This document shows, piece after piece, positions 5,670 to 47,736 of a DNA stretch of 64,000 nt. A model generated the notes under the pieces. It did no database searches. It saw nothing but the letters and a program-made list of their open reading frames with translations, and was not told where the DNA came from. Position 1 is the stretch's first letter; the number at the start of each line of letters is the position of its first letter. Position numbers and translations under genes: made by a program. The stretch lies in IMG/VR virus record IMGVR_UViG_3300046692_000385. One strand, 5' to 3'. Source of the DNA: a virus (Duplodnaviria > Heunggongvirae > Uroviricota > Caudoviricetes).

Positions 5670-5884
5670 GGGTCAACCATGTCCGCGTGCAGCATGAACA
5701 TATCGATCAGGGGTTGGTCGACGTCGATCGCCCAGATCGGCGCTCTGGGATGGCCCATGTTTTCGACGCCGGTGATGCGCATGTCTTGCGACTGGCGAAT
5801 TGCTTCGGCGCTCGTGAGGTGCAGATCGGCGTAACCGCGGTCATTAAGGCGCACGCGCTGCCCGACTGTAGGCTTGGTGTTCAT
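5663..5884 (-). CDS. hypothetical protein (start MNTKPTVGQR)
   Basis: Internal ATG at 5884 with GAGG RBS. Confidence 0.4.
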   Translation of the reverse strand: MNTKPTVGQRVRLNDRGYADLHLTSAEAIRQSQDMRITGVENMGHPRAPIWAIDVDQPLIDMFMLHADMVDPC

Positions 5885-5891
5885 GTCGGCC

Positions 5892-6368
5892 TCAATACAA
5901 GAGGTTGCTGCGATGATGACGCGCGTCCAGCAGCAGCCCGCGACCAACCTTCGGGTCGAACGGCTCGTCGTATTCCTGGAACAGTCGCAGCACGCGGCGC
6001 TTGAAAAGCTTCTTGCCGGACATGCCCTTGATCTGCTCGCCGCTCAACTCGCTGTCCTTGTAGCCACAGCCATGCCCCTCGAACAGATCGCCCTCCAGGT
6101 GATTCAACTGGAAGAATTGGCGCAGTGCGGTAAAGCCGTATTGTCGGTAGGTTGCCGATTCACACATCGGCTGACCATTCCACTCCGCCGGCTTCAGGCC
6201 GCGCTCGTTCATCGCCGGGTGCATCGCGAGCCAGCCGCCCGCACAGGCGATCGTGCCGCAGCTCGGGCCCGCGCCCTTCGTGCGCCACATGTCGAGATCG
6301 AAGGCACGCTTGGGAATGCCGTCGATGATGGCGAACGCGTCGCGCAGCAGTTCAAAATTCGGTCGCAT
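5892..6368 (-). CDS. hypothetical protein
   Basis: 158-aa ORF in operon. Confidence 0.5.
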   Translation of the reverse strand: MRPNFELLRDAFAIIDGIPKRAFDLDMWRTKGAGPSCGTIACAGGWLAMHPAMNERGLKPAEWNGQPMCESATYRQYGFTALRQFFQLNHLEGDLFEGHGCGYKDSELSGEQIKGMSGKKLFKRRVLRLFQEYDEPFDPKVGRGLLLDARHHRSNLLY

Positions 6369-7156
6369 TATGCACCCTCCTTCACTCGACGCACGGCGGC
6401 CCAGAGGACGTTCTTCACCATGTCGTAGGACACGTCCGGGTCTTTCACCTGCACGCGCGTCGTCTCACGGCTGTCGGGGTTGAAGACCAGAAAGCCGCGC
6501 GCCAGCTTCATTTTGGTGTCGCCGCTGTCGATCATGTTGCGGCCGACCTGCTTGATGATCGAGTGGCCGATCGGAGGCAGAACGTCCAGGTTGTAATGCA
6601 CCAGGTCGTAGTAGAGCTGGAACACATATTCGCGGTCTGCACCGCCCAGCACGCGCGCCACAGCAGCGAGCTTCATGGGCGCAGCCGAGAAGAACTTGTT
6701 GCAGGCGCCACACCGGGCGATCAGTTCAGCCGCCGTGTCACCGATTGCCGCATTCATGCGCTCCAGCTCCTTCGGCGTCACACGGCTGCTACCGCTCAGC
6801 ACGCGGGCTGCGAGGCGCACCACTTCCGCCTGGCGCGGTTGAATGCGAAGGATGTCGCTCGCGGTGCGGCGCGTTCCCTGGTCGAGCACGGCAAAGCTCT
6901 CTGATGGCGCATCGAAGGTCACGTTCATCGCGACCGGCATGTTTGCCGCGACGATTGCCTCGAGGCGGTGCTGGCCGTCCAGAACATTGCCGCCGGTGTC
7001 GAACGCGATCCCCTGATGCGTCTTCAGGAACTCGCCCCGAGTGATAGCATCCGCCAGATCCTTCACGTGACCGCGGCGAAGCGGGCGATTGCCGATGTTT
7101 GCCTTGAGATATTCCTTCGCCATGACGGGCGTAATTACCATTTCACGCGTGTTCAA
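6368..7156 (-). CDS. ParB/Srx-like nuclease-domain protein
   Basis: N-terminal GNRPLRRGHVKDL...IAFDTGGNVLDGQHRLEAI matches ParB N-terminal / sulfiredoxin fold (DGQHR motif). Confidence 0.6.
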   Translation of the reverse strand: MNTREMVITPVMAKEYLKANIGNRPLRRGHVKDLADAITRGEFLKTHQGIAFDTGGNVLDGQHRLEAIVAANMPVAMNVTFDAPSESFAVLDQGTRRTASDILRIQPRQAEVVRLAARVLSGSSRVTPKELERMNAAIGDTAAELIARCGACNKFFSAAPMKLAAVARVLGGADREYVFQLYYDLVHYNLDVLPPIGHSIIKQVGRNMIDSGDTKMKLARGFLVFNPDSRETTRVQVKDPDVSYDMVKNVLWAAVRRVKEGA

Positions 7157-27296: not shown

Positions 27297-30665
<3,369 letters not shown>

Positions 30666-36722: not shown

Positions 36723-37400
36723 TTACCTGATCGCCGCCGAATCCTTTAAGCTACGGCGGTCCGACCGTGTAATAACGCCCACAACACGGATCGGTTGGCC
36801 GAACGTGTCCTTGAAAACCTCGAATACTCCCTCTAGGTTTACCCCTATGTCACGCTTGTGTTCACCCTCGAAAAATACACGTGTCAATCCTTCTTGAAGC
36901 ATGCGATTGTAAAGTGCATCAACCACGGGTTTATTCTTTTCTGACAATAGGGCGCGGAAGTTTTCATGCGTTGCTTCCATACCAGGGGGTGCACAGAGGT
37001 GCTCACGTGCTAACGGACTCCAGTGGCAAACACCCGTTAGCAGGTTTTCCTCGATCACCCCGGCGTCTAATAGATTGATGGCAATGTGGAGGCGTCGTTC
37101 GCTGGCGATACAAGCTTCTAAGTAGGCTCGCCTCTTCTGAGCAAAGGCGTCATCAGGCTCTGGCTGCACTGAACGTAGTGCCTCATCCCCGTAACCTAAC
37201 CAGACCCAATTGACGTCCAAGTATTTGGAGACATCTCTCAAGCTCTTGTAATTTATTGCCCCACCCTTCAACCACTTTCCGACAGCTTGCGGAGATACTC
37301 CAATCGCTCTGGACAAAGATGCGGCAGTCTCTTGCTTGGCTTCTAGAAGCGAGCGTAGTCGTTCTGGGAAAGTGGCCTCTTTCTCAGTGGCGTTGGTCAC
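36723..37400 (-). CDS. HTH (XRE/cI-like) regulator with uncharacterised C-terminal domain
   Basis: N-terminal LRSLLEAKQETAASLSRAIGVSPQAVGKWLKGG. Confidence 0.5.
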   Translation of the reverse strand: MTNATEKEATFPERLRSLLEAKQETAASLSRAIGVSPQAVGKWLKGGAINYKSLRDVSKYLDVNWVWLGYGDEALRSVQPEPDDAFAQKRRAYLEACIASERRLHIAINLLDAGVIEENLLTGVCHWSPLAREHLCAPPGMEATHENFRALLSEKNKPVVDALYNRMLQEGLTRVFFEGEHKRDIGVNLEGVFEVFKDTFGQPIRVVGVITRSDRRSLKDSAAIR

Positions 37401-37658
37401 AGCTTCATCCTTTATTGTTCTCTCAACACGTTTGGCTTCACTACTATAGGGATAGTGATATTACTGTAACTAAATACACTTAAAAGCACTTTGGTATAAC
37501 GTGCTTTTTGTTTTTTGTCTGATAGATTCTACCCTCAGTTGGTGCACTGGAAGATCGCACGCTCCCGAGGTTGCCCTCTATATAACAATTCCCATATCTC
37601 GTTAAATCCCGAGCATTATAGAAAGCCAACTATTAGCGCACCCACCTTGCTTGCTACG

Positions 37659-37698
37659 TTGGTATTTTGGTATCTAGATACCTTGGTATCTTGGTATG
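37659..37698. repeat. candidate partition (centromere-like) site: TTGGTAT heptads around 14-bp palindrome GGTATCTAGATACC
   Basis: Four TTGGTAT copies within 40 bp plus a fifth near 37487, ~100 bp upstream of parA in AT-rich spacer. Confidence 0.4.
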
Positions 37699-37787
37699 AA
37701 GCAAGATGGCACACTTGAGAAGTTACTTGAAGACGAGCCATGTATGAATTAGGCTATGGACAAAACTTGTGATGGAGAGGGCAATCT

Positions 37788-38441
37788 ATGTCCGTTGTTA
37801 TGGTGGGAACTGAGAAGGGAGGTGTGGGCAAATCTACCTTTACACAGAACTTGGCTTCTATCCGCGCATCGCTCAAACGGCGAGTCGCCGTGTTCGACCT
37901 GGACGGGCAGAACAGCACGGCGAAGTGGGCTTCGCGTCGGGCCGATAATCCCGCCCTGGCGCCGGTCCACGTCGAGCGGTGGGAGCCGCGAACGCCGATC
38001 ACGAAGGAAGAGTTTGGCGCCGTCATCGCGCGCCTGATTGACACCTACGACGACGTTTTTATCGATGTCGGTGGGCGTGATTCGGACGGCTTTCAATGGG
38101 GCTTAGGCGTCGCTGACCGGGTGATTGCACCGCTCGTGCCGTCGCAGATGGACCTAGACACTGTGCCCGATCTTCACGCTCTCGTTGGCACCTATGCGAA
38201 GAAAATTAACCTGAGTGTGGTGCTCAATATGGCCGACAAACGCAAGCGATTCACGAAGGCGATGGTGCAGAAAATGGAGCCCTACGCCGATCGTCTCCCG
38301 CTCATGAGTCACATGGTCGCGCCGCGAGAAAGCTACAAATTCGCCAACGCTCAGGGCAGGGGAGTGGGCGAGCTTTCGGGTTCCGAGTGGGATGCCAGTG
38401 CGGCCAACGAAATGAAAGACCTATATTTGGGAACGTTCTAA
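37788..38441 (+). CDS. parA: ParA-family partition ATPase
   Basis: Deviant Walker A KGGVGKST; GGAGAGGG RBS. Confidence 0.8.
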   Translation: MSVVMVGTEKGGVGKSTFTQNLASIRASLKRRVAVFDLDGQNSTAKWASRRADNPALAPVHVERWEPRTPITKEEFGAVIARLIDTYDDVFIDVGGRDSDGFQWGLGVADRVIAPLVPSQMDLDTVPDLHALVGTYAKKINLSVVLNMADKRKRFTKAMVQKMEPYADRLPLMSHMVAPRESYKFANAQGRGVGELSGSEWDASAANEMKDLYLGTF

Positions 38442-38443
38442 TC

Positions 38444-38821
38444 ATGAGCAAAGCCAACGTGATGTCGGAGCCAAAGAGTAAGCAGTATTTGGCGGACCTG
38501 GAGGCGGTCGACACCTCGCGCTCGGCGCCTGCACCTGCTAACCCGCCCGAGAGGATTGAGGACGAGGAGGTGGTAGCACCGGCGGTAGTGACAGAGGGGA
38601 GGGCGCTTGCTCGCCCGGGGAGGGGCGTGGACTTACAAGCCCTGCGCGCCGCGCTGCCGAAGAAGGAAGCTCCGGTGCAGCAGCCGGTTCGTATTCCGCC
38701 GTCGTTGAAGGAGGACCTGACGCTGATCTGTTTCGCGCTTGGTAAGACCAAGAACGACTTCATCGTGGACATACTGCGAAAGGAAGTCGCGCGTGAGAAG
38801 AAGCGCATGGGCCTGGACTGA
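38444..38821 (+). CDS. ParG-like ribbon-helix-helix partner protein
   Basis: Start MSKANVM right after parA stop; C-terminal RHH RIPPSLKEDLTLICFALGKTKNDFIVDILRKE. Confidence 0.5.
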   Translation: MSKANVMSEPKSKQYLADLEAVDTSRSAPAPANPPERIEDEEVVAPAVVTEGRALARPGRGVDLQALRAALPKKEAPVQQPVRIPPSLKEDLTLICFALGKTKNDFIVDILRKEVAREKKRMGLD

Positions 38822-38844
38822 CCACCCTCCTGCAGACTGCTTTT

Positions 38845-39125
38845 CGGGTTTTGAGATAGGGGTCTATTGGGAGGTTTTCCGGGTTGGATCGGGTTTTGAG
38901 ATAGGGGTCAGGGTAGTTAGAAGATAGTTATAAAGGATTAGGGCCTGTGGAAAGGACTTGTAAGTCACTGAAAACATAAGCCTTTTTTTGCATGCCTTCT
39001 ATCTCAAACCCCGACAATTCCTATCTCAAACCCCGTTAGCGGCTATCTCAAAACCCGAGTTTCTATCCCAAACCCCGAACGAAAAATATCTCAAAACCCG
39101 ATAGTTATGCACATCTCAATCCGAG
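38845..39125. repeat. iteron-type replication origin: 2 inverted + 6 direct copies of TATCTCAAA(A/C)CCCG at ~22-bp spacing
   Basis: Direct copies at 39000, 39022, 39044, 39064, 39087, 39112 (last degenerate); inverted copies at 38845 and 38890; flanked by 16-bp inverted repeat GCCTTTTTTTGCATGCC (38980) / GGCATGCAAAAAAA (39145). Confidence 0.75.
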
Positions 39126-39147
39126 CCCTGCGTGCTACTTTCTCGGC

Positions 39148-39969
39148 ATGCAAAAAAACACCGCCATCGACATCCTGAAACGCCGAGAAGCCACGCAGCG
39201 AAAGGCATCGACGGCGCCCGTCCAACTGGAGTTCTGGTCCGAGAAGGTTCGTGGTCTGCCTAACACGCTCGCGCGCTGCGCGCTATTTACCGCGGCCGGC
39301 AAGAAAGAGGATCGGGCCAAATTCAGCGAGCATGTCGTTTTCTCGACCAAGGGTTTCACACTGACCTACACCGGCGAGGAACTACGTCAGGATGACCAGG
39401 ACGTTTTCCTGCAGCTCGTCCACATGACGCGCGGCATTCCCATCGGCCACAAGCTGAACGTCACGGGCTACACCATTCTGGGGGCGCTCAGTTGGGGCAA
39501 GGGCGGCAAAGACTACGCGCGCCTTCGCGAGAGCATTGAGCGGCTCTCCGACACCAGGATAAAGCTCGAAGGCGAGAACATACGCTTCAAGGGCGGATTG
39601 CTGCCCTCGATGACCCAAGTCGGTGACTCGGCTGCGAGTCGGTTTCGACTGTGGCTGGACCCGAGCGTGATCGAACTCTTTGGCGAGAACGAGTATTCAC
39701 TGGTCGACTGGGAGGATCGGCTCTCGCTGTCGGCCCTGGCGAAGTGGCTCCACAGCTTCTACTTCACGCACCGAGAGCCGCACCCATATCGAATCAAAAC
39801 CATTCACGAGCTTTGTGGCAGCCGGCAGAAGGAGCTCTGGGCCTTTAAGCAGAAGCTCAAGTTGGCGCTCGATGAACTGGTGCTGATTGGCTTTCTCGCC
39901 AAATACGAAATCCTGGGCGATCTGCTGGCCGTGCGCCGGCAGTATGCGGTTGCGGCACTTCGCAACTAA
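39148..39969 (+). CDS. TrfA-like plasmid replication initiator
   Basis: LPNTLARCALFTAAG segment typical of TrfA family; immediately downstream of iterons. Confidence 0.55.
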   Translation: MQKNTAIDILKRREATQRKASTAPVQLEFWSEKVRGLPNTLARCALFTAAGKKEDRAKFSEHVVFSTKGFTLTYTGEELRQDDQDVFLQLVHMTRGIPIGHKLNVTGYTILGALSWGKGGKDYARLRESIERLSDTRIKLEGENIRFKGGLLPSMTQVGDSAASRFRLWLDPSVIELFGENEYSLVDWEDRLSLSALAKWLHSFYFTHREPHPYRIKTIHELCGSRQKELWAFKQKLKLALDELVLIGFLAKYEILGDLLAVRRQYAVAALRN

Positions 39970-40348
39970 CCGTCCAGCGCCCGACCCTACTTATGCACAG
40001 AAACGGTGGACAACCCTGTGGAGCAATGATCGATGCTGGTCGACGTCTCCCCGATGCGTGAGCGCGGCAAGGCACTGCCTCAACACGCCGTGCAGAGCGG
40101 CCCGGCGGTCCACGGCGATCTTGTGATCGGCCAGGAGAAATCCTCCGCACTCAACCGCTACACCAACATCGCACGCTTCCAGACGGCAGGCGCCACCGAT
40201 CCGCAGCCACTTCCGTCGCTTCACGACGCCGCGCTTTCCTGGATGGGTCCGCTTGGGTTCGTCCTGACGGGCGTGGAATTCGTCGACGGCACTGCTTACT
40301 CACAGTCTTGGTGGTGCCGTCCGAGCTAGACGGAGGCCCGACGGGATC

Positions 40349-40813
40349 TTGCGCGGACCACCGGAGATTGCAATGGATCTACTGAACCTACTCGAAGGCG
40401 TCGCGGCAGTCTTAGCCATTTACATCTCAGTTGGGAAACTCCAAAGAGGGCTCTTAAAAAACTGGCTCACTGCCTGGCGCATCATGGCTAGCGTTGGGGT
40501 CGTCGCCGTCTGTGGGTGGATGCTGGTTTTCCAGGTGACCGGCAATATCGACGAAATAATTCACTATCCGCGCGCGGGCCTGTTTCGCAGCCTATCCGTC
40601 GCCGCGCTAGTGATCTGGGCAGCGGTCGTGACGGTCTGGGGCACCTGGAAGCCCTACCACGTCAAGACGATGAACATTCAGGAGAGGCGCTGGCACTTCG
40701 GAATCATGTTCTTGGTGTGCGTTCTCATCGTAGTGGCCGCGAAGATTCCACGCTGCTCAGGCAGTGCCTTATACGATTCTGCATGGGGAGTCTGGTGGTG
40801 CCAGCAGGGCTAG
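40349..40813 (+). CDS. membrane protein
   Basis: 154 aa, 4 predicted TM helices. Confidence 0.4.
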   Translation: MRGPPEIAMDLLNLLEGVAAVLAIYISVGKLQRGLLKNWLTAWRIMASVGVVAVCGWMLVFQVTGNIDEIIHYPRAGLFRSLSVAALVIWAAVVTVWGTWKPYHVKTMNIQERRWHFGIMFLVCVLIVVAAKIPRCSGSALYDSAWGVWWCQQG

Positions 40814-41463
40814 GCCTTGCCGCTGCGGCCCCAGCCGAGCGCTGCTGGGCGGCTGTAGTTGGCGAACTTCACCTTGAGCCAGTCTCTTGAGCGCCCGCGC
40901 TGATACGGCGAGTCGAGTCGCTTGCCGACCATACCCTCGAAATCGTGCTCCTTGACCTGCTCGAAGACCCATGCGCCGGCCGCCACGATGCCGGTTACGT
41001 AGACCAACACGGCCGTATTGTCGAAGGAGTCGCGCAGCGCCTGCTTGCGCTCGACAAGCGGCAGGTGCCGAATGTCGCGATCGCCATCGGCGAGCATGTC
41101 AAACACGTAGAGGCGGGCCGGGTGCAGCCTCATCGCGGCCCGCACGTTCGCTGCGACCGAGGTCCGCGCCCGAATTTGCAGGCGCTCGAATGAGGACTGC
41201 CCAGTCGGCTCATCCACAGTGAGCTCCGCGTCCCAGATGAAATCGCCGGGCACCTGCGCGACCGCCGCGAGCACGTCAGGAAACGAGCGGTTCATGAGGT
41301 TGCCCTGCCGCGAAATTAGCTCGACGCGCGCGCCAACCTTCCGAACCAGACAGCGATGGCCGTCGTATTTAAGTTCGAACAACCAGTCTTCGCGGGAAAA
41401 CGGTGCGCGGTTGAGCGTGGCGAGCATCAGGTCGCTGGCGTCGATGAGCGGAATGCCACTCAC
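40810..41463 (-). CDS. ATP-dependent DNA ligase nucleotidyltransferase domain only (no OB domain)
   Basis: Motif I KYDGHR, III FIWDAEL, IV LYVFDML, V EGMVGK; 217 aa. Confidence 0.6.
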   Translation of the reverse strand: MSGIPLIDASDLMLATLNRAPFSREDWLFELKYDGHRCLVRKVGARVELISRQGNLMNRSFPDVLAAVAQVPGDFIWDAELTVDEPTGQSSFERLQIRARTSVAANVRAAMRLHPARLYVFDMLADGDRDIRHLPLVERKQALRDSFDNTAVLVYVTGIVAAGAWVFEQVKEHDFEGMVGKRLDSPYQRGRSRDWLKVKFANYSRPAALGWGRSGKA

Positions 41464-41642
41464 GGCTTTGGCAATCGGGCGCTGACATAGGCGAGCTTCG
41501 CCCAGGCGTTGTCAGGATCGCACCCGGAATAGGCGCAGAAATGCTCGAAGTCGTCGAACACGGTATGGCCCGCGTCGTTGGTTTGCAACGTGCGGCCATC
41601 AATGACTTTCTTCAGCAATTCGACTGGATCGCCATAGCACAT
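41460..41642 (-). CDS. hypothetical small protein
   Basis: 60 aa, coupled to ligase-domain gene. Confidence 0.3.
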   Translation of the reverse strand: MCYGDPVELLKKVIDGRTLQTNDAGHTVFDDFEHFCAYSGCDPDNAWAKLAYVSARLPKP

Positions 41643-41744
41643 AATGACCCCTCCGGTTGACGCGAACGGCCAAGCAAACCCGGTGCCCGCGCATCAAAAT
41701 GATCCGCCCCAAAACGTTGCTAATGAAACGCCCGAGGATGAACT

Positions 41745-41969
41745 ATGAAAACTTGGACCTACGAGGAAGTCACGGCGGAAGCCGAGCGCCAAATTAAACG
41801 CGGGGTGGAGGATGCGGAAACGGCCGACCTTCAGTCAACAAAGAACATGAATGCAGATTTCGCTTTCGGCGCATATTTATTCTGGCTGGGACTGACAGCC
41901 GAGGTCGCGACGATTGAAGATCAACGGCGCTTAGAGGCGTTAGCTAAGAGTTCCGAGAAAAGACGATAA
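41745..41969 (+). CDS. hypothetical small protein
   Basis: 74 aa. Confidence 0.3.
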   Translation: MKTWTYEEVTAEAERQIKRGVEDAETADLQSTKNMNADFAFGAYLFWLGLTAEVATIEDQRRLEALAKSSEKRR

Positions 41970-42050
41970 TCAGTATTATGTCAACCACGGTGCGCGGTGA
42001 CGCGCCCTGGCTGCTCGCGCTATGATGAAAGCCTCACAGTGAGGTGTCTC

Positions 42051-42245
42051 ATGGGAAATATGTGGACTGAGCCTGCCGTCAGCGGGCACGACACGAAGGA
42101 AGAAGCCGAAGCCTACGACAAGTGGTTCCGCGAAGAGGTGCGGCTCGCTCTCGAAGAGGATGCGCCGAGCATTCCGCACGACGAGGCTGTTGCAATGTTG
42201 CGCGCCCGGGCCGCGGAGCGAAGGAAGGCGCAGAATGATCGTTGA
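42051..42245 (+). CDS. type II antitoxin (ParD/RelB-like)
   Basis: Start MGNMWTEP with GTGAGG RBS; 11-nt overlap with toxin gene. Confidence 0.5.
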   Translation: MGNMWTEPAVSGHDTKEEAEAYDKWFREEVRLALEEDAPSIPHDEAVAMLRARAAERRKAQNDR

Positions 42246-42507
42246 CTGGCGCCCGCGCGCCTTGCGCCGCCTTTACCAGATCCACGAACACATCAGCCAA
42301 GACAGCATCGACGCCGCAGATTTCGTGCAGGAGACGATTATTTCGGCGGCGGCCGATCTGCCCGCCCATCTCTACGTCTACCGCGAAGGTCGTGTGCCAA
42401 ACACGCGGGAGATGGTCGTGCTGCCGAACTACATCATCGTCTATCGGATCAAGAAGGATCGAATCGACATCGTGAACGTCCTGCACTCGCGGCGACGCTA
42501 CCCATGA
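42235..42507 (+). CDS. RelE/ParE-family toxin
   Basis: MIVDWRPRAL...IIVYRIKKDRIDIVNVLHSRRRYP ParE/RelE fold signature. Confidence 0.65.
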   Translation: MIVDWRPRALRRLYQIHEHISQDSIDAADFVQETIISAAADLPAHLYVYREGRVPNTREMVVLPNYIIVYRIKKDRIDIVNVLHSRRRYP

Positions 42508-42698
42508 CCGACGAAGAATGGCAACAGGCTTTGGCGAAGCTTGATCAGATCGATGGCAAGCTTGAAGAGATCGCTGGCGAATTTGAGGCGATGCAGCGCG
42601 ACTGGCGTCAGAGACTTACCAAGATCGACGCCACTCTGACACGCATCGAAGTTAGTTCGAGAGCCACATCAGGCGCTCGACCTCGACGTCCAGCTTGA
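42504..42698 (+). CDS. hypothetical coiled-coil small protein
   Basis: 64 aa. Confidence 0.3.
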   Translation: MTDEEWQQALAKLDQIDGKLEEIAGEFEAMQRDWRQRLTKIDATLTRIEVSSRATSGARPRRPA

Positions 42699-43284
42699 TC
42701 ACTGTGCGGTAGGCGCGGCGCAGCTCGGGCCACTCCATATCGAACACGTCCGCGAGCTCCAGCGATAGACCGAAAAGCGGTGCGACCGTGCCGTTGAGCT
42801 CCTGCCAGAAGACATACGGGGTTCGCAGGTGGCGCGGGGTGAGCCGCAGCACGTCGAGCGCCAGTTTCGAGAGCGTGCCATTTGTGCGAAGCGTCTGGGC
42901 CCGGTCCCACTTGAGGGTGATCAGGTCGTCGATCTCCAGGTTCGCCTCGAGGCCGAACAGCACCGCTGCCGGCCGGGGCCGGGCAAGCTGCTCTAAACCG
43001 GTTCGAATGTCGCCAAGCGTGATGCGCTCTTGCGGAATCGCGAAGCGCATGAGCGGCACTTCTGGCACCTCGCCCCGTGCGTGTGCTGCGCGCACCTGTG
43101 CAAGCACCGTCTCAACGATCAGCTTCCCCTCTTCACCGCGGTTGTCCATATTCAGACGCGTGAGAAAGGCGTGAAGCTGCATCGGGTGCGCTCGTTCGAG
43201 CGCCGTTTCCCAGATGGGGGAATCTGTAAGGGCTGATTTGCCCAGGAGAGGCGTGATCTCTCCGACGTCTTTGAGCGCCTGCAT
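42652..43284 (-). CDS. hypothetical protein
   Basis: 210-aa ORF. Confidence 0.45.
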   Translation of the reverse strand: MQALKDVGEITPLLGKSALTDSPIWETALERAHPMQLHAFLTRLNMDNRGEEGKLIVETVLAQVRAAHARGEVPEVPLMRFAIPQERITLGDIRTGLEQLARPRPAAVLFGLEANLEIDDLITLKWDRAQTLRTNGTLSKLALDVLRLTPRHLRTPYVFWQELNGTVAPLFGLSLELADVFDMEWPELRRAYRTVIKLDVEVERLMWLSN

Positions 43285-44508: not shown

Positions 44509-44919
44509 TCACCAGGTTTTGATTTCTTCGAGCTTCAGTTCGATTTCGGGCGACGCCTCGATCGTGCGCAGCGCGAGCAGGCGCATGTCGTTCAAATGCG
44601 CGCGCACCGCTGCCAATTCCGCTTTGTGCGATTCGGTCGCTTCACCGCTCGATGGACGGAATCCCTGCTTGTAGAGCGCGTCGAAAAGCGCTTGCGCGGC
44701 TTTATGCGTGAGCGTGAACATCGGCTCCGGCGGCATCGCCTGACCGGTCGGCACGTTCTCGACTTCAAACGAGCCGAACGGCTTGATGACGCCCACGCCG
44801 GTCGTGCCTCGATACGACAGGCCGTGAACGTCAAGACCGCCCACGCCCATGTTCTCGCGCATCATCACCTCCTCCAGCCACAGAGTCGGGACCGCCTTTG
44901 GGGTGGACGACGTGCTCAT
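44509..44919 (-). CDS. hypothetical protein
   Basis: 136 aa. Confidence 0.45.
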   Translation of the reverse strand: MSTSSTPKAVPTLWLEEVMMRENMGVGGLDVHGLSYRGTTGVGVIKPFGSFEVENVPTGQAMPPEPMFTLTHKAAQALFDALYKQGFRPSSGEATESHKAELAAVRAHLNDMRLLALRTIEASPEIELKLEEIKTW

Positions 44920-46313
44920 GCTGCGAGCGCCTCCACCTTCTTGCCGGTGACAGCATTCGCGCGAGCGGCGATCACTTCTTCCAGCGAGTCGGCCGTCTCC
45001 TTGTCCGTGCGATAGCTGGCTTCAGCCATGCGCGGCAGGAACAGGCTATGCAGCGGGTTGCTGTCGGAGGGCTTCATGATTTCGTTGAAGCGAATCGGCC
45101 ACACGTGACCGATGAAAGCTTCGCGGTCGGCGTCGATGGCGTCACGCAGCGCTTCGTTCTTCACCGCCACATTGACCTGCAGCAGACCGTCGCGGGTTTC
45201 CATCGTGACGCGCCCTGCCCGCCCTTCGTTCTTCGTGCCCGGTTCGCCGTCGAGGATGGCGGTCGAGACGAGATCCACATCGATTTCCAGCTTGAGCTTG
45301 ACCACATCGGCGTTGCCGCTCGACGTGTCTTTCCAGACGCCGGCGCCGTTCTTGAGCACCGTGCCTTCCTTGCCTTCGATCTGCAGGCTCGCGCAGTGTG
45401 CATAGGCTTCGTCGAGCGAGTGGACGATCTTCGTCGGGATCAGGCGCACCGAAGCGCCGCCCGAGCGCATGATTTGCGTGAGCAGGCCTCTGAAGCGCTC
45501 GCGATACGGCGTGTCGCAACTGCCCTTTGGCAGCGCCAGTTCGAGCGGGATCTGATCCCAGGCGAAGAAAACAGGCTTCTCGTTCGGAGCGAAGCTGCCG
45601 CCCGCCAGCACGCTGTTCAGAATGCCGTTGCCGAGTTCACGCGAGGCGACCACGCCGTCGACCAGCACCACGATCTCGCCGTGCGTCTGCGTGCCAGGTG
45701 AAAAGGTTTTGCGCGCTTCGTGTTCGATGGCGGGGAACGCCTCGATCGGCAGTTCGTTGCCCTGGCGCGTGGTCAGGCGCACGACGCCGGCCGTATCGTG
45801 GTCAACGTTCGTGAATGCGCCGTCTGCCTTGTGCTGGCTGAACGCGCCCGCCTTCCAGTCCCACTTGTCGAACTTCGCCTTCTCCGGCAGCACGCAGCGC
45901 ATGTAGGGGAAGCTGCGGATCGTGCCCTTCTTCGCCTTGTTGACGGTTTCGGCCGAGAAGCCCGCGCGCAGGTCTTTCTTGATGATGCGCCAGAAGAGTT
46001 CCGACGAGGCGGGCTCAAGGCGCTCCATCTCCGCGCGCACTGCGTCGATTGCCGCGTTGCCGGTGAGGTCACGCGCGGCGAGGCGCTTGATGATCGCGTA
46101 GGTGTCTGCGTCGAACATCGCACCACCAACCTTCGCCGCGTCATTTTCCGGGCGTTTGCTGATGCCGTAGCTGATCAGCGGGTCGAGCGCGAACAGCAGC
46201 ACGTCCCGAAAGTCGACATCCTCGATGTTCGCGGCGACGAGCGCCTGCTTTTCGTTCTTGCTGCTGGTCGAGGCGATCGTATCGATCAGCAGGAAAATCT
46301 CTTTCGAATTCAT
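44916..46313 (-). CDS. ATP-dependent DNA ligase (full length)
   Basis: Motif I region QHKADGAF, adenylation + OB domains, N-terminal DNA-binding domain. Confidence 0.7.
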   Translation of the reverse strand: MNSKEIFLLIDTIASTSSKNEKQALVAANIEDVDFRDVLLFALDPLISYGISKRPENDAAKVGGAMFDADTYAIIKRLAARDLTGNAAIDAVRAEMERLEPASSELFWRIIKKDLRAGFSAETVNKAKKGTIRSFPYMRCVLPEKAKFDKWDWKAGAFSQHKADGAFTNVDHDTAGVVRLTTRQGNELPIEAFPAIEHEARKTFSPGTQTHGEIVVLVDGVVASRELGNGILNSVLAGGSFAPNEKPVFFAWDQIPLELALPKGSCDTPYRERFRGLLTQIMRSGGASVRLIPTKIVHSLDEAYAHCASLQIEGKEGTVLKNGAGVWKDTSSGNADVVKLKLEIDVDLVSTAILDGEPGTKNEGRAGRVTMETRDGLLQVNVAVKNEALRDAIDADREAFIGHVWPIRFNEIMKPSDSNPLHSLFLPRMAEASYRTDKETADSLEEVIAARANAVTGKKVEALAA

Positions 46314-47012: not shown

Positions 47013-47281
47013 TCGCCCCAGTCGGGGCAGGACGTTTCAAATTCAGCTTGGTTGCCCGCGTGAGCGAGCAGCATGTTGGCGAAGGTGTTGATGACCGCCT
47101 TCTTTTCGGCTGCCTGGCGCATCACGCTTCCCAGGCGGAACTTCGCGTCGAACTCGACCAGGCGGCGAACGTCCGGCGACATGGCTTCGAGCAGCATGTC
47201 CGCGCCCTCGATGCGGCCGTCGTCGCGCCCCTCGAAGTAGGCGAGGTTCTCTGCCGCGTCGTATTCGTATGTCGTCACCAC
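47006..47281 (-). CDS. hypothetical protein, C-terminus ..DWGEW
   Basis: 91 aa. Confidence 0.4.
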   Translation of the reverse strand: MVTTYEYDAAENLAYFEGRDDGRIEGADMLLEAMSPDVRRLVEFDAKFRLGSVMRQAAEKKAVINTFANMLLAHAGNQAEFETSCPDWGEW

Positions 47282-47736
47282 GACCCCCAGTTCTCGCCGC
47301 GATCAACCGGCACTTCCTCGCGCTTGGGCGCAAGCTCCTCATCGATCGCCGTGTGGATGCTCTCGAGCCCGAGCAGCGCAATCACGCGCGCCCGAAGGGC
47401 TGAATCGTTGTAGTGCTGGCCCAGCTTGACGCGAAAGGCTGTCGGCACGAGCGCACCGACATTCGAATGAAACGCGTGCGCCGATTTTTCGACCTTGTAG
47501 CCGCCCTTCTCTTTGGCAGCGACCTGCTTGTCGACCGAGCGGTCCAAGTCCCACTTGGACGTATGCGGAATGACGTTTACCTGCCCTCCACCCGAGTGAA
47601 GCGCCTCGACCTTGCCCCATCGACGCACCTCGACATGCTTGTGGGAGAGCGGGTCGAAAAACTTCACAATCTCGTAGAACTTGGTGCCGCCCGCGTGCAG
47701 CAAGGCGACCGGATCAACAGCGATCTCTTTATCCAT
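47275..47736 (-). CDS. possible WGR-domain protein, C-terminus ..NWGSW
   Basis: RRWGKVE...GGGQV reminiscent of WGR. Confidence 0.35.
   Translation of the reverse strand: MDKEIAVDPVALLHAGGTKFYEIVKFFDPLSHKHVEVRRWGKVEALHSGGGQVNVIPHTSKWDLDRSVDKQVAAKEKGGYKVEKSAHAFHSNVGALVPTAFRVKLGQHYNDSALRARVIALLGLESIHTAIDEELAPKREEVPVDRGENWGSW

Follow-up and report, generated by a model that had tools for sequence, protein, structure and literature searches.

A LigD-type adenylation domain without an OB fold, carried as a mobile accessory gene by phages and plasmids of Burkholderiaceae

The DNA analysed in this study, a stretch of 64,000 nucleotides from a virus of the class Caudoviricetes (IMG/VR record IMGVR_UViG_3300046692_000385; its full length is referred to below as the window), encodes a 217-aa protein which appears to be the nucleotidyltransferase (NTase) domain of an ATP-dependent ligase standing on its own. 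It is preceded by a gene for a 60-aa protein, designated P1. The features of the two genes are as follows:

40810..41463, minus strand: stand-alone LigD-type NTase (adenylation) domain protein, 217 aa, pI 9.3, without an oligonucleotide-binding (OB) domain
41353-41370, minus strand: motif I, KYDGHR (translation), residues 32-37; Lys32 is the predicted AMP acceptor
41299-41316, minus strand: motif Ia, ISRQGN (translation)
41221-41241, minus strand: motif III, FIWDAEL (translation)
41092-41112, minus strand: motif IV, LYVFDML (translation)
40921-40938, minus strand: motif V, EGMVGK (translation); motif V through WLKVK spans 40867-40938
40867-40881, minus strand: WLKVK (translation)
40825-40857, minus strand: conserved C-terminal tail, YSRPAALGWGR, which occupies the place of the OB domain
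41460..41642, minus strand: P1, open reading frame (ORF) for an acidic 60-aa protein (pI 5.0) upstream of the ligase gene; three helices, no known family
41650-41654, minus strand: Shine-Dalgarno sequence GGAGG of the P1 gene, 7 nt ahead of its ATG (read from sequence)

The ligase ORF begins with a GTG codon at 41463 and ends with a stop codon at 40810-40812. The overlap of the two genes reported in the first-pass annotation is real, but their order is the reverse of that described: upstream lies the P1 gene, whose TGA (41462-41460) shares nucleotides with the ligase GTG (41463-41461), so that the GTGA at 41463-41460 forms the junction. Inspection of the sequence revealed no Shine-Dalgarno sequence for the ligase start, whereas the P1 gene has a strong one (GGAGG), and the two genes are therefore probably translationally coupled. 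Motifs I, III, IV and V, named earlier, were all recovered by translation at the expected residues.

The 217-aa protein was confirmed to be a genuine stand-alone adenylation domain. Residues 22-199 match PF01068 (E 7.7e-27; 94.7 bits against the Pfam cut-off of 26.2), and the NCBIfam profile of the LigD ligase module, TIGR02779, is matched with E 2.6e-40 over profile positions 2-189 of 302 only. The score of the latter match (138.5 bits; cut-off 227.75), as well as that of TIGR02776 (126; cut-off 373), lies below the curated LigD threshold. A weak match to the Pfam family RNA_ligase (E 0.0028) proves nothing either way. The structure prediction that had been called for was performed: the AlphaFold model, built from a 39-sequence alignment, shows a complete NTase alpha/beta fold (pLDDT 91) whose last 18 residues are of low confidence or disordered (pLDDT 68, then 41). 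Foldseek comparison with the PDB retrieved the NTase domains of archaeal ligases and of Mycobacterium tuberculosis LigD (TM 0.72-0.80, E about 1e-16).

The claimed absence of OB and DNA-binding domains was also borne out. No OB family occurs among the Pfam matches of the protein, which ends 18 residues past WLKVK, and profile and tblastn searches with 107 LigD OB segments against all frames of the 64-kb window detected no LigD-type OB domain (best profile E 0.34). On the basis of motif I, motifs III, IIIa, IV and V and the predicted fold, the protein is classified as a PF01068 member of the covalent nucleotidyltransferase superfamily. It is not a canonical DNA ligase, since the scaffold of NTase and OB domains (NT + OB) with motif VI is incomplete in it, nor is it a LigD or non-homologous end joining (NHEJ) ligase: the scores are below the cut-offs, there is a single domain, and POL, PE and Ku are lacking. 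No Ku, POL or PE family was detected among the scanned neighbours in the window (not every ORF of which was scanned) or in loci L004-L008.

To place this protein among its relatives, a word-indexed protein search was used, which yielded 404 sequences; the conservation counts given here refer to the best 120 representatives of clusters, which are 172-267 aa long (median 215.5 aa) and 62-100% identical. PF01068 is the sole ligase domain recorded for these representatives; PF01331, a related family, is listed in addition for four of them. In the longer homologues (229-267 aa) the extra length is no more than a basic extension at the N terminus or the result of a mis-called start. Every checked site of motifs I, Ia, III, IIIa, IV and V has the same residue in at least 115 of the 120 proteins. 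The predicted nucleotide acceptor K32 is kept in 117, and D34, G35 and R37 in 118-119; in motif Ia, which we take from studies of the Chlorella virus ligase to be the NTase element that contacts the DNA backbone, the counts are 115 (S51), 117 (R52) and 119 (G54). Conservation is complete (120/120) for (i) F75, D78 and E80 of motif III, (ii) F121 of motif IV, whose Y119 and D122 are each found in 119, and (iii) E176, G177, K181, W195 and K199 of the motif V region, where K197 is found in 118.

We also fetched 160 loci from genomes and viral contigs, 94 of which belong to the family and form 71 non-redundant groups at 95% identity. In all 94 the ORF ends at profile position 213-216, i.e. right after the NTase domain, and the median pairwise dN/dS of the ligase is 0.14; the family is under purifying selection. 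The possibility, raised at the outset, that homologues carry a downstream OB domain which is merely frameshifted here was checked and failed. The common end in 94 loci, the lack of an OB domain in any frame of the window, the low dN/dS and the retained catalytic residues indicate that the gene is not broken, and a frameshifted or truncated ligase was thus ruled out.

The first-pass annotation considered such an isolated domain unusual. This holds with respect to characterised enzymes, but in databases the architecture is not a rarity: among the top 150 nearest 50%-identity representatives, 149 were newly listed, and of these 41 are NTase-only proteins of 190-245 aa, 33 have 246-400 aa, 47 exceed 400 aa, and 28 are fragment-like. 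The names that the source databases give to these family members of about 210 aa, 'bifunctional non-homologous end joining protein LigD' at JGI and 'DNA ligase' at NCBI, are both unjustified for an NTase-only protein.

The nearest full-length relatives are LigD proteins of 800-1200 aa from Gemmatimonadota, Myxococcota and other phyla (about 40% identity). The family tail, with the 11-residue consensus YSRPAALG[WF]GR, aligns with the first strand of the OB domain, 'EVVIGGWRAG' in M. tuberculosis LigD and 'DFVVVGY' in full-length LigDs. The family thus resembles a LigD ligase module that breaks off directly past OB strand beta-1, of which the tail looks like a relic. By these sequence relationships the family is derived from the bacterial LigD ligase module by loss of the OB domain, and this loss is family-wide. 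The tail is conserved about as strongly as the catalytic motifs (R205 in 120/120, G210 in 117/120, Y203 in 116/120, A208 in 115/120), and several distant NTase-only proteins share a '..NPxYSRxxAxGF..' tail. High conservation combined with predicted disorder suggests a functional peptide, which might be an interaction motif or take over from the basic residues of motif VI. The idea that the tail holds a known short motif, such as one for beta-clamp binding, was considered and dropped, given the poor match to QL[SD]LF.

The genomic context of the homologues, whose examination had been suggested, was analysed, and it revealed that prophages, plasmids and phage-plasmids of Burkholderiaceae carry them in accessory regions. 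Members are encoded on plasmids of Burkholderia and Paraburkholderia, in prophage regions of chromosomes and on many IMG/VR contigs (135 confirmed matches in viral contigs). Its neighbours include ArdA (PF03230), Imm_superinfect, GmrSD_N, N6-methylase, ImuA, SOS-response-associated peptidase and integrase genes, as well as lysis and tail genes. The ligase is thus an accessory ('moron') gene in circulation among the temperate phages, phage-plasmids and plasmids of Burkholderiaceae. The conjugative plasmid BTHE68_p2 of Burkholderia sp. THE68 (NZ_AP022320.1) carries two copies of an NTase-only ligase (P0022 and P0026); a 63-aa P1 gene overlaps the start of one of them, and an imuA cassette is located nearby.

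The ligase and P1 genes move as one cassette. Comparison (blastn) of positions 35-48 kb of the window with the fetched loci showed that DNA similarity to otherwise unrelated loci is confined to this pair: L004 and L089 match 40824-41642 at 80%, L010 matches 40823-41655, L011 matches 40826-41642, and L009 matches 40833-41659. In the related phage L142 a family ligase is found at the same place, within a variable region. A further locus, L148 (IMGVR_UViG_3300011390_000002), carries at 5938-7112 an N-terminally extended ligase of another subtype, without P1 and on the other side of a ParE toxin-antitoxin (TA) pair (compared with 40810-42507 of the window). Both its subtype and its position on the opposite side point to an independent insertion, and hence to repeated acquisition in one variable region.

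P1 is predicted by AlphaFold to adopt a three-helix fold (pLDDT 90) and gave no match in Pfam, PHROG or PADLOC and no fold match in the PDB or BFVD. A profile search revealed 176 homologue clusters; the best 120 of these are all 52-116 aa long, and every named source is a member of the Burkholderiaceae. Its dN/dS of about 0.21 reflects purifying selection. P1 adjoins the ligase gene in 42 of 69 non-redundant groups and is placed directly upstream, with an overlap of 4-8 nt, in 41 of them; in plasmid PPGU16_p3 (L002) the order is flipped, with P1 directly downstream and still adjacent. No P1 homologue was found near the ligase in 26 of the 69 groups, and 17 such loci, corresponding to about a quarter of the groups, are without any conserved neighbour. 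Divergence of the two genes is incongruent (between the window and L004, dN is 0.07 for the ligase and 0.32 for P1), and all three divergent P1 homologues that were looked up lack a nearby ligase.

Clustering of the neighbours in 71 loci identified two recurrent close companions, P1 (30/71 loci) and an unrelated upstream family, P2 (14/71); no conserved third gene that might supply an OB domain was found among them. P2 (about 85 aa, range 70-120) replaces P1 beside closely related ligases of clusters 5, 10 and 17 and shows the same 4-nt overlap with the ligase gene. Its conserved sequence is '..ARYTLVIHNGM.VTSEGESW.LDF...APVRWADAD', with no match in Pfam, PHROG or PADLOC. Its occurrence can be listed as follows:

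about 5740-6004 in most loci: P2 gene, found in L016, L017, L022, L095, L106-L109, L112, L116, L135-L138, L140, L145 and L151

Other small neighbours were also observed. In two viral contigs, L105 (5450-5995) and L155 (5434-5988), a P1 domain is fused to a C-terminal domain of about 110 aa that has no Pfam match and whose sequence resembles the protein upstream of the L113 ligase. A ribbon-helix-helix gene neighbours the ligase in L153. Plasmid pRK1-3 of Cupriavidus basilensis (L172, 3727-4588) encodes a distant NTase-only homologue of 210 aa (about 36% identity), annotated as hypothetical; a 74-aa DUF2188 gene lies 4 nt upstream, and genes of an AbiEii-family toxin and of a PIN-domain protein flank the pair. 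An OB domain hidden in P1 was ruled out by the model, a three-helix bundle. No natural fusion of P1 with the ligase was identified: the longer ligase homologues contain none, the 93-aa protein P0123 is an apparent frameshift artefact on a 2.3-kb contig, and the P1 matches listed are small ORFan proteins only, without informative fusions.

The surroundings of the cassette in the window comprise the following features:

36723-37400: cI-like HTH repressor, plasmid-type module
37788-38441: ParA, plasmid-type module
38387-38821: Arc-like protein, plasmid-type module
39148-39969: TrfA, plasmid-type module
40824..41659, minus strand: extent of the mobile two-gene cassette, as given by the limits of DNA similarity to otherwise unrelated loci
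41997-42245, plus strand: PaaA2/RelB-type antitoxin
42160-42507, plus strand: ParE/RelE-type toxin
44916..46313, minus strand: full-length T4-type ATP-dependent DNA ligase with DNA-binding, NTase and OB domains, 465 aa

In its overall make-up the window is a large phage-type replicon, with genes for a DnaE-type polymerase (27297-30665), a gp32-like SSB, a FEN-type exonuclease, a UvsX-like recombinase and SbcCD, as well as ribonucleotide reductase, ThyX, CobS/CobT-like proteins, DnaB, primase, PhoH and a tail fibre. The phage genes are interrupted by a plasmid-type maintenance module at about 36.7-43.3 kb (36723-43284), which makes the window a phage-plasmid candidate; the ligase cassette lies inside this module. 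The PaaA2/RelB-ParE TA pair, located about 350 nt upstream of the cassette, also flanks the ligase in L142 and L148. Near-identical DNA is essentially absent from the phage and plasmid collections searched. The presence of a second, complete ligase of 465 aa was confirmed by its matches to T4 DNA ligase (PDB 6dt1, E 1.8e-30 over query residues 5-449) and to phrog_114 (E 8.5e-95). It sits in the replication module, 3.5 kb from the 217-aa ligase and outside the cassette.

No consensus promoter or terminator was detected on the cassette strand, Rfam gave no match at 35.5-44 kb, and the segment 39.9-40.4 kb contains no meaningful repeats or iterons. A 98-aa gene at 40033-40329 (plus strand; phrog_5560, of unknown function) is real as judged by codon periodicity (80, 37 and 36 variable sites by codon position), and recurs 0.6-4 kb from an NTase-only ligase in four other loci only (L009, L093, L015 and L148). 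Beside the primase, a 153-aa protein (47275-47736, minus strand) has a weak WGR-domain match (E 1.5e-3), below the cut-off. Such domains are found in the company of PARP-type proteins and of some that sense DNA breaks. PADLOC gave no match for the ligase, P1, P2 or their neighbours.

Taking these results together, we tentatively favour the view that this intact, selected, LigD-derived single-domain family comprises accessory nick- or end-processing enzymes that act on the DNA of the element carrying them. The 217-aa enzyme would react with ATP to form a Lys32-AMP adduct and pass the AMP from Lys32 to the 5'-phosphate of a polynucleotide, at a nick or at an end; contact with this polynucleotide would be made via motif Ia and the face of the NTase domain. 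In this way it might seal or process breaks in the element's DNA when that DNA enters the cell, circularises or becomes established, or once host nucleases have attacked it, a task presumably separate from that of the T4-type replicative ligase. DNA clamping and the ATP leaving-group function, which normally fall to the OB domain and motif VI, could, speculatively, be provided by the invariant basic tail, by a host factor such as Ku, or by one of the several interchangeable small neighbours.

The break-sealing role is proposed because of the accessory position near anti-restriction and repair genes, the similar placement of LigD-like phage ligases, and the listing of a phage ligase of Chlorella virus type, DruSM1 ORF55, as an anti-Avs protein (preprint 10.1101/2025.06.06.658234). 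The roles put forward in the first-pass annotation, a repair or anti-restriction ligase or an end-adenylating enzyme, would be compatible with this context. In the ATP-bound structure of M. tuberculosis LigD, motif VI makes no direct contact with ATP (PMC7470946), so the OB domain may matter less for step 1 in this lineage. Host Ku could conceivably assist, since in M. tuberculosis it is the NTase part of the LigD ligase domain (D522, K579 and L580) that Ku contacts (preprint 10.64898/2025.12.12.693941). The tail or the small neighbours might offer further routes to the missing functions. The isolated NTase domain of T7 ligase is said to have been found by Doherty and Wigley in 1999 to keep weak adenylation and ligation activity.

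Several points weigh against this proposal. According to the review literature, effective ligation takes at least the NT + OB scaffold, and ATP-dependent ligases rely on the OB domain's motif VI for step 1 (PMC7470946); the isolated NTase domain of the kinetoplastid ligase KREL1 loses auto-adenylylation (PMC9891256). The OB-less protein may therefore ligate poorly or not at all. Disorder is predicted for the tail, whose role is guesswork. Since genes of defence and of anti-defence occur side by side among the neighbours, the context leaves the direction of the function unfixed, and no defence or anti-defence profile in PADLOC was matched.

A bolder version of the same proposal strikes us as doubtful. 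The protein would be a self-sufficient single-domain polynucleotide ligase or 5'-adenylyltransferase whose tail, YSRPAALG[WF]GR, either replaces motif VI and the clamping function or recruits a clamp such as Ku, and which would help the phages and plasmids of soil Burkholderiaceae to counter nucleases or to become established; alternatively, it would be a ligase-fold toxin that caps 5' ends with AMP.

The toxin idea leads to the first of the rival explanations, a TA or abortive-infection-like module, which we regard as unlikely. The OB-less NTase would be the toxin, for instance adenylylating 5'-phosphate ends of DNA or RNA that are then left unsealed (without the OB domain the enzyme could stall after step 2), and the small upstream protein would neutralise it, so that the pair stabilises a plasmid-prophage or excludes phages. 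A small acidic gene whose stop overlaps the start of a larger gene for a basic enzyme, on mobile elements, is the architecture of type II TA systems, and the exchange of small partners (P1, P2, DUF2188 in pRK1-3, ribbon-helix-helix in L153) as well as the flipped order in L002 is likewise reminiscent of TA families. The cassette also resides beside the ParE/PaaA2 pair in a plasmid-maintenance module and, in prophages, in moron hot spots near the integrase. The 17 loci with intact catalytic motifs and no conserved small neighbour are, however, hard to square with a toxin, and P1 occurs alone, while BTHE68_p2 carries two ligase copies. Neither PADLOC (for the ligase or P1) nor Pfam gave a TA match. 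We know of no ligase-fold toxin, and literature searches turned up none.

Still less probable is an obligate two-component ligase, in which P1 would bind the NTase domain and provide the OB and motif VI functions (nick clamping and activation of adenylylation) in trans, as in the KREPA2-KREL1 and Hen1-Pnkp pairs. The overlapping upstream position of P1 in most groups and its adjacency even in PPGU16_p3, the joint movement of the cassette, the lack of a Shine-Dalgarno sequence for the ligase, the complementary charges of the two proteins (pI 5.0 and 9.3) and the purifying selection on P1 would all fit such a partnership. In addition, KREL1 and Rnl2 use helical C-terminal modules, rather than OB folds, for step 1 (PMC9891256). 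The first-pass annotation had offered this reading among others, and in its obligate form it is not supported: the three-helix P1 has neither an OB fold nor a fold match, it is exchanged for the unrelated P2 within ligase clusters 5, 10 and 17 and was not found near the ligase in 26 of 69 groups, some ligases have no conserved neighbour, P1 occurs alone, and the two genes diverge incongruently. P1 is better described as a frequent, translationally coupled and co-mobilised companion which may modulate the enzyme, and not as an obligatory subunit.

Equally improbable is an RNA-directed enzyme, i.e. an RNA repair ligase or 5'-adenylyltransferase acting, for example, against the effects of anticodon nucleases or of toxins that cleave RNA. 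The lack of an OB fold is common among RNA ligases, the ligase modules of Pseudomonas and Agrobacterium LigD reportedly prefer a 3'-ribonucleotide at the nick (work from the Shuman laboratory), and the weak RNA_ligase match might be read in the same sense. All sequence and structure neighbours, however, are DNA ligases, and no end-healing kinase or phosphatase is adjacent, in contrast to known RNA repair systems. Least probable of all is a non-catalytic decoy or regulator (e.g. one that binds host Ku or DNA ends and blocks NHEJ on incoming linear DNA) or a decaying truncated gene: OB loss would cripple a canonical ligase (PMC7470946), the Ku contact on LigD involves the NTase part, and K32 is lost in 3 of 120 representatives, but near-invariant catalytic residues and a dN/dS of 0.14 are unexpected for a mere binding surface, a pseudogene was ruled out, and the same end point is kept in 94 loci.

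NTase-only proteins of about 210 residues form a large, intact, selected and mobile family which keeps the catalytic and nick-contacting residues while falling below the accepted NT + OB minimum (PMC7470946), and this raises the question of whether a ligase NTase domain can function by itself, or else with the help of a short tail or of a host factor. Should it do so, it would represent a smaller scaffold for joining DNA or RNA or for adenylylating ends, a new lower limit for a DNA-joining enzyme, and possibly a tool; if not, the ligase fold would have been put to a new use here, in the conflict of mobile elements with their hosts. In either case, it carries a warning for annotation, as NTase-only proteins are mislabelled as LigD or DNA ligase. 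Literature searches on OB-less DNA ligases, ligase-fold toxins and leading-region ligases retrieved no description of the 217-aa family.

Among known systems, the LIG module of LigD (M. tuberculosis, PDB 1VS0 and 6NHX) provides the best sequence and profile match (TIGR02779, E 2.6e-40; 1vs0, E 3.6e-14). The NTase fold is common to both (TM about 0.72), and all NTase motifs of the module are present in the 217-aa ligase. In contrast to LigD, the family (i) has no OB domain or motif VI, retaining only the putative beta-1 relic, (ii) lacks POL and PE, and (iii) resides on mobile elements instead of in a chromosomal NHEJ operon, with no Ku gene among the examined neighbours. The LigD-like ligases of temperate phages (Sinorhizobium phiLM21 gp36, StopSmel gp51, Burkholderia BcepIL02 gp43, and SPbeta YoqV/LigB) have a homologous NTase domain (29-34% identity) and are also accessory; StopSmel gp51 and BcepIL02 gp43 adjoin methyltransferase or restriction genes, and phiLM21 gp36 and StopSmel gp51 are located near the genome end. 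With 262-330 aa, these proteins extend beyond an NTase domain of about 200 residues, presumably into an OB domain, and none is paired with P1.

Phage ligases associated with counter-defence are, like the enzyme proposed here, accessory, distinct from or additional to replication needs, and proposed to mend nuclease damage. They consist of NT + OB and are of the Chlorella virus or T7 type, and any link of the 217-aa family to a defence system would be one of analogy. KREL1-KREPA2, T4 Rnl2 and Pnkp-Hen1 likewise have an NTase core without a fused OB domain, in which helical modules or partners tune adenylylation (PMC9891256). These are, however, RNA ligases with an attached helical C-terminal domain bearing a motif-VI-like element, whereas the 217-aa family has a tail of 18 residues only and a candidate partner that is dispensable.

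A parallel in terms of reduction is provided by the minimal two-domain ligases (Chlorella virus ligase, Lig E, and the Burkholderia pseudomallei prophage ligase), which are also pared-down accessory ligases, partly phage-derived, without extra DNA-binding domains (PMC8455567, PMC6144786). A 2021 survey of minimal ligases covered proteins of 250-370 aa only and set aside 'NT-only' entries as apparently partial (PMC8455567). The two-domain enzymes keep the OB domain and so correspond to the accepted minimum (PMC7470946), whereas the family described here is one domain smaller.

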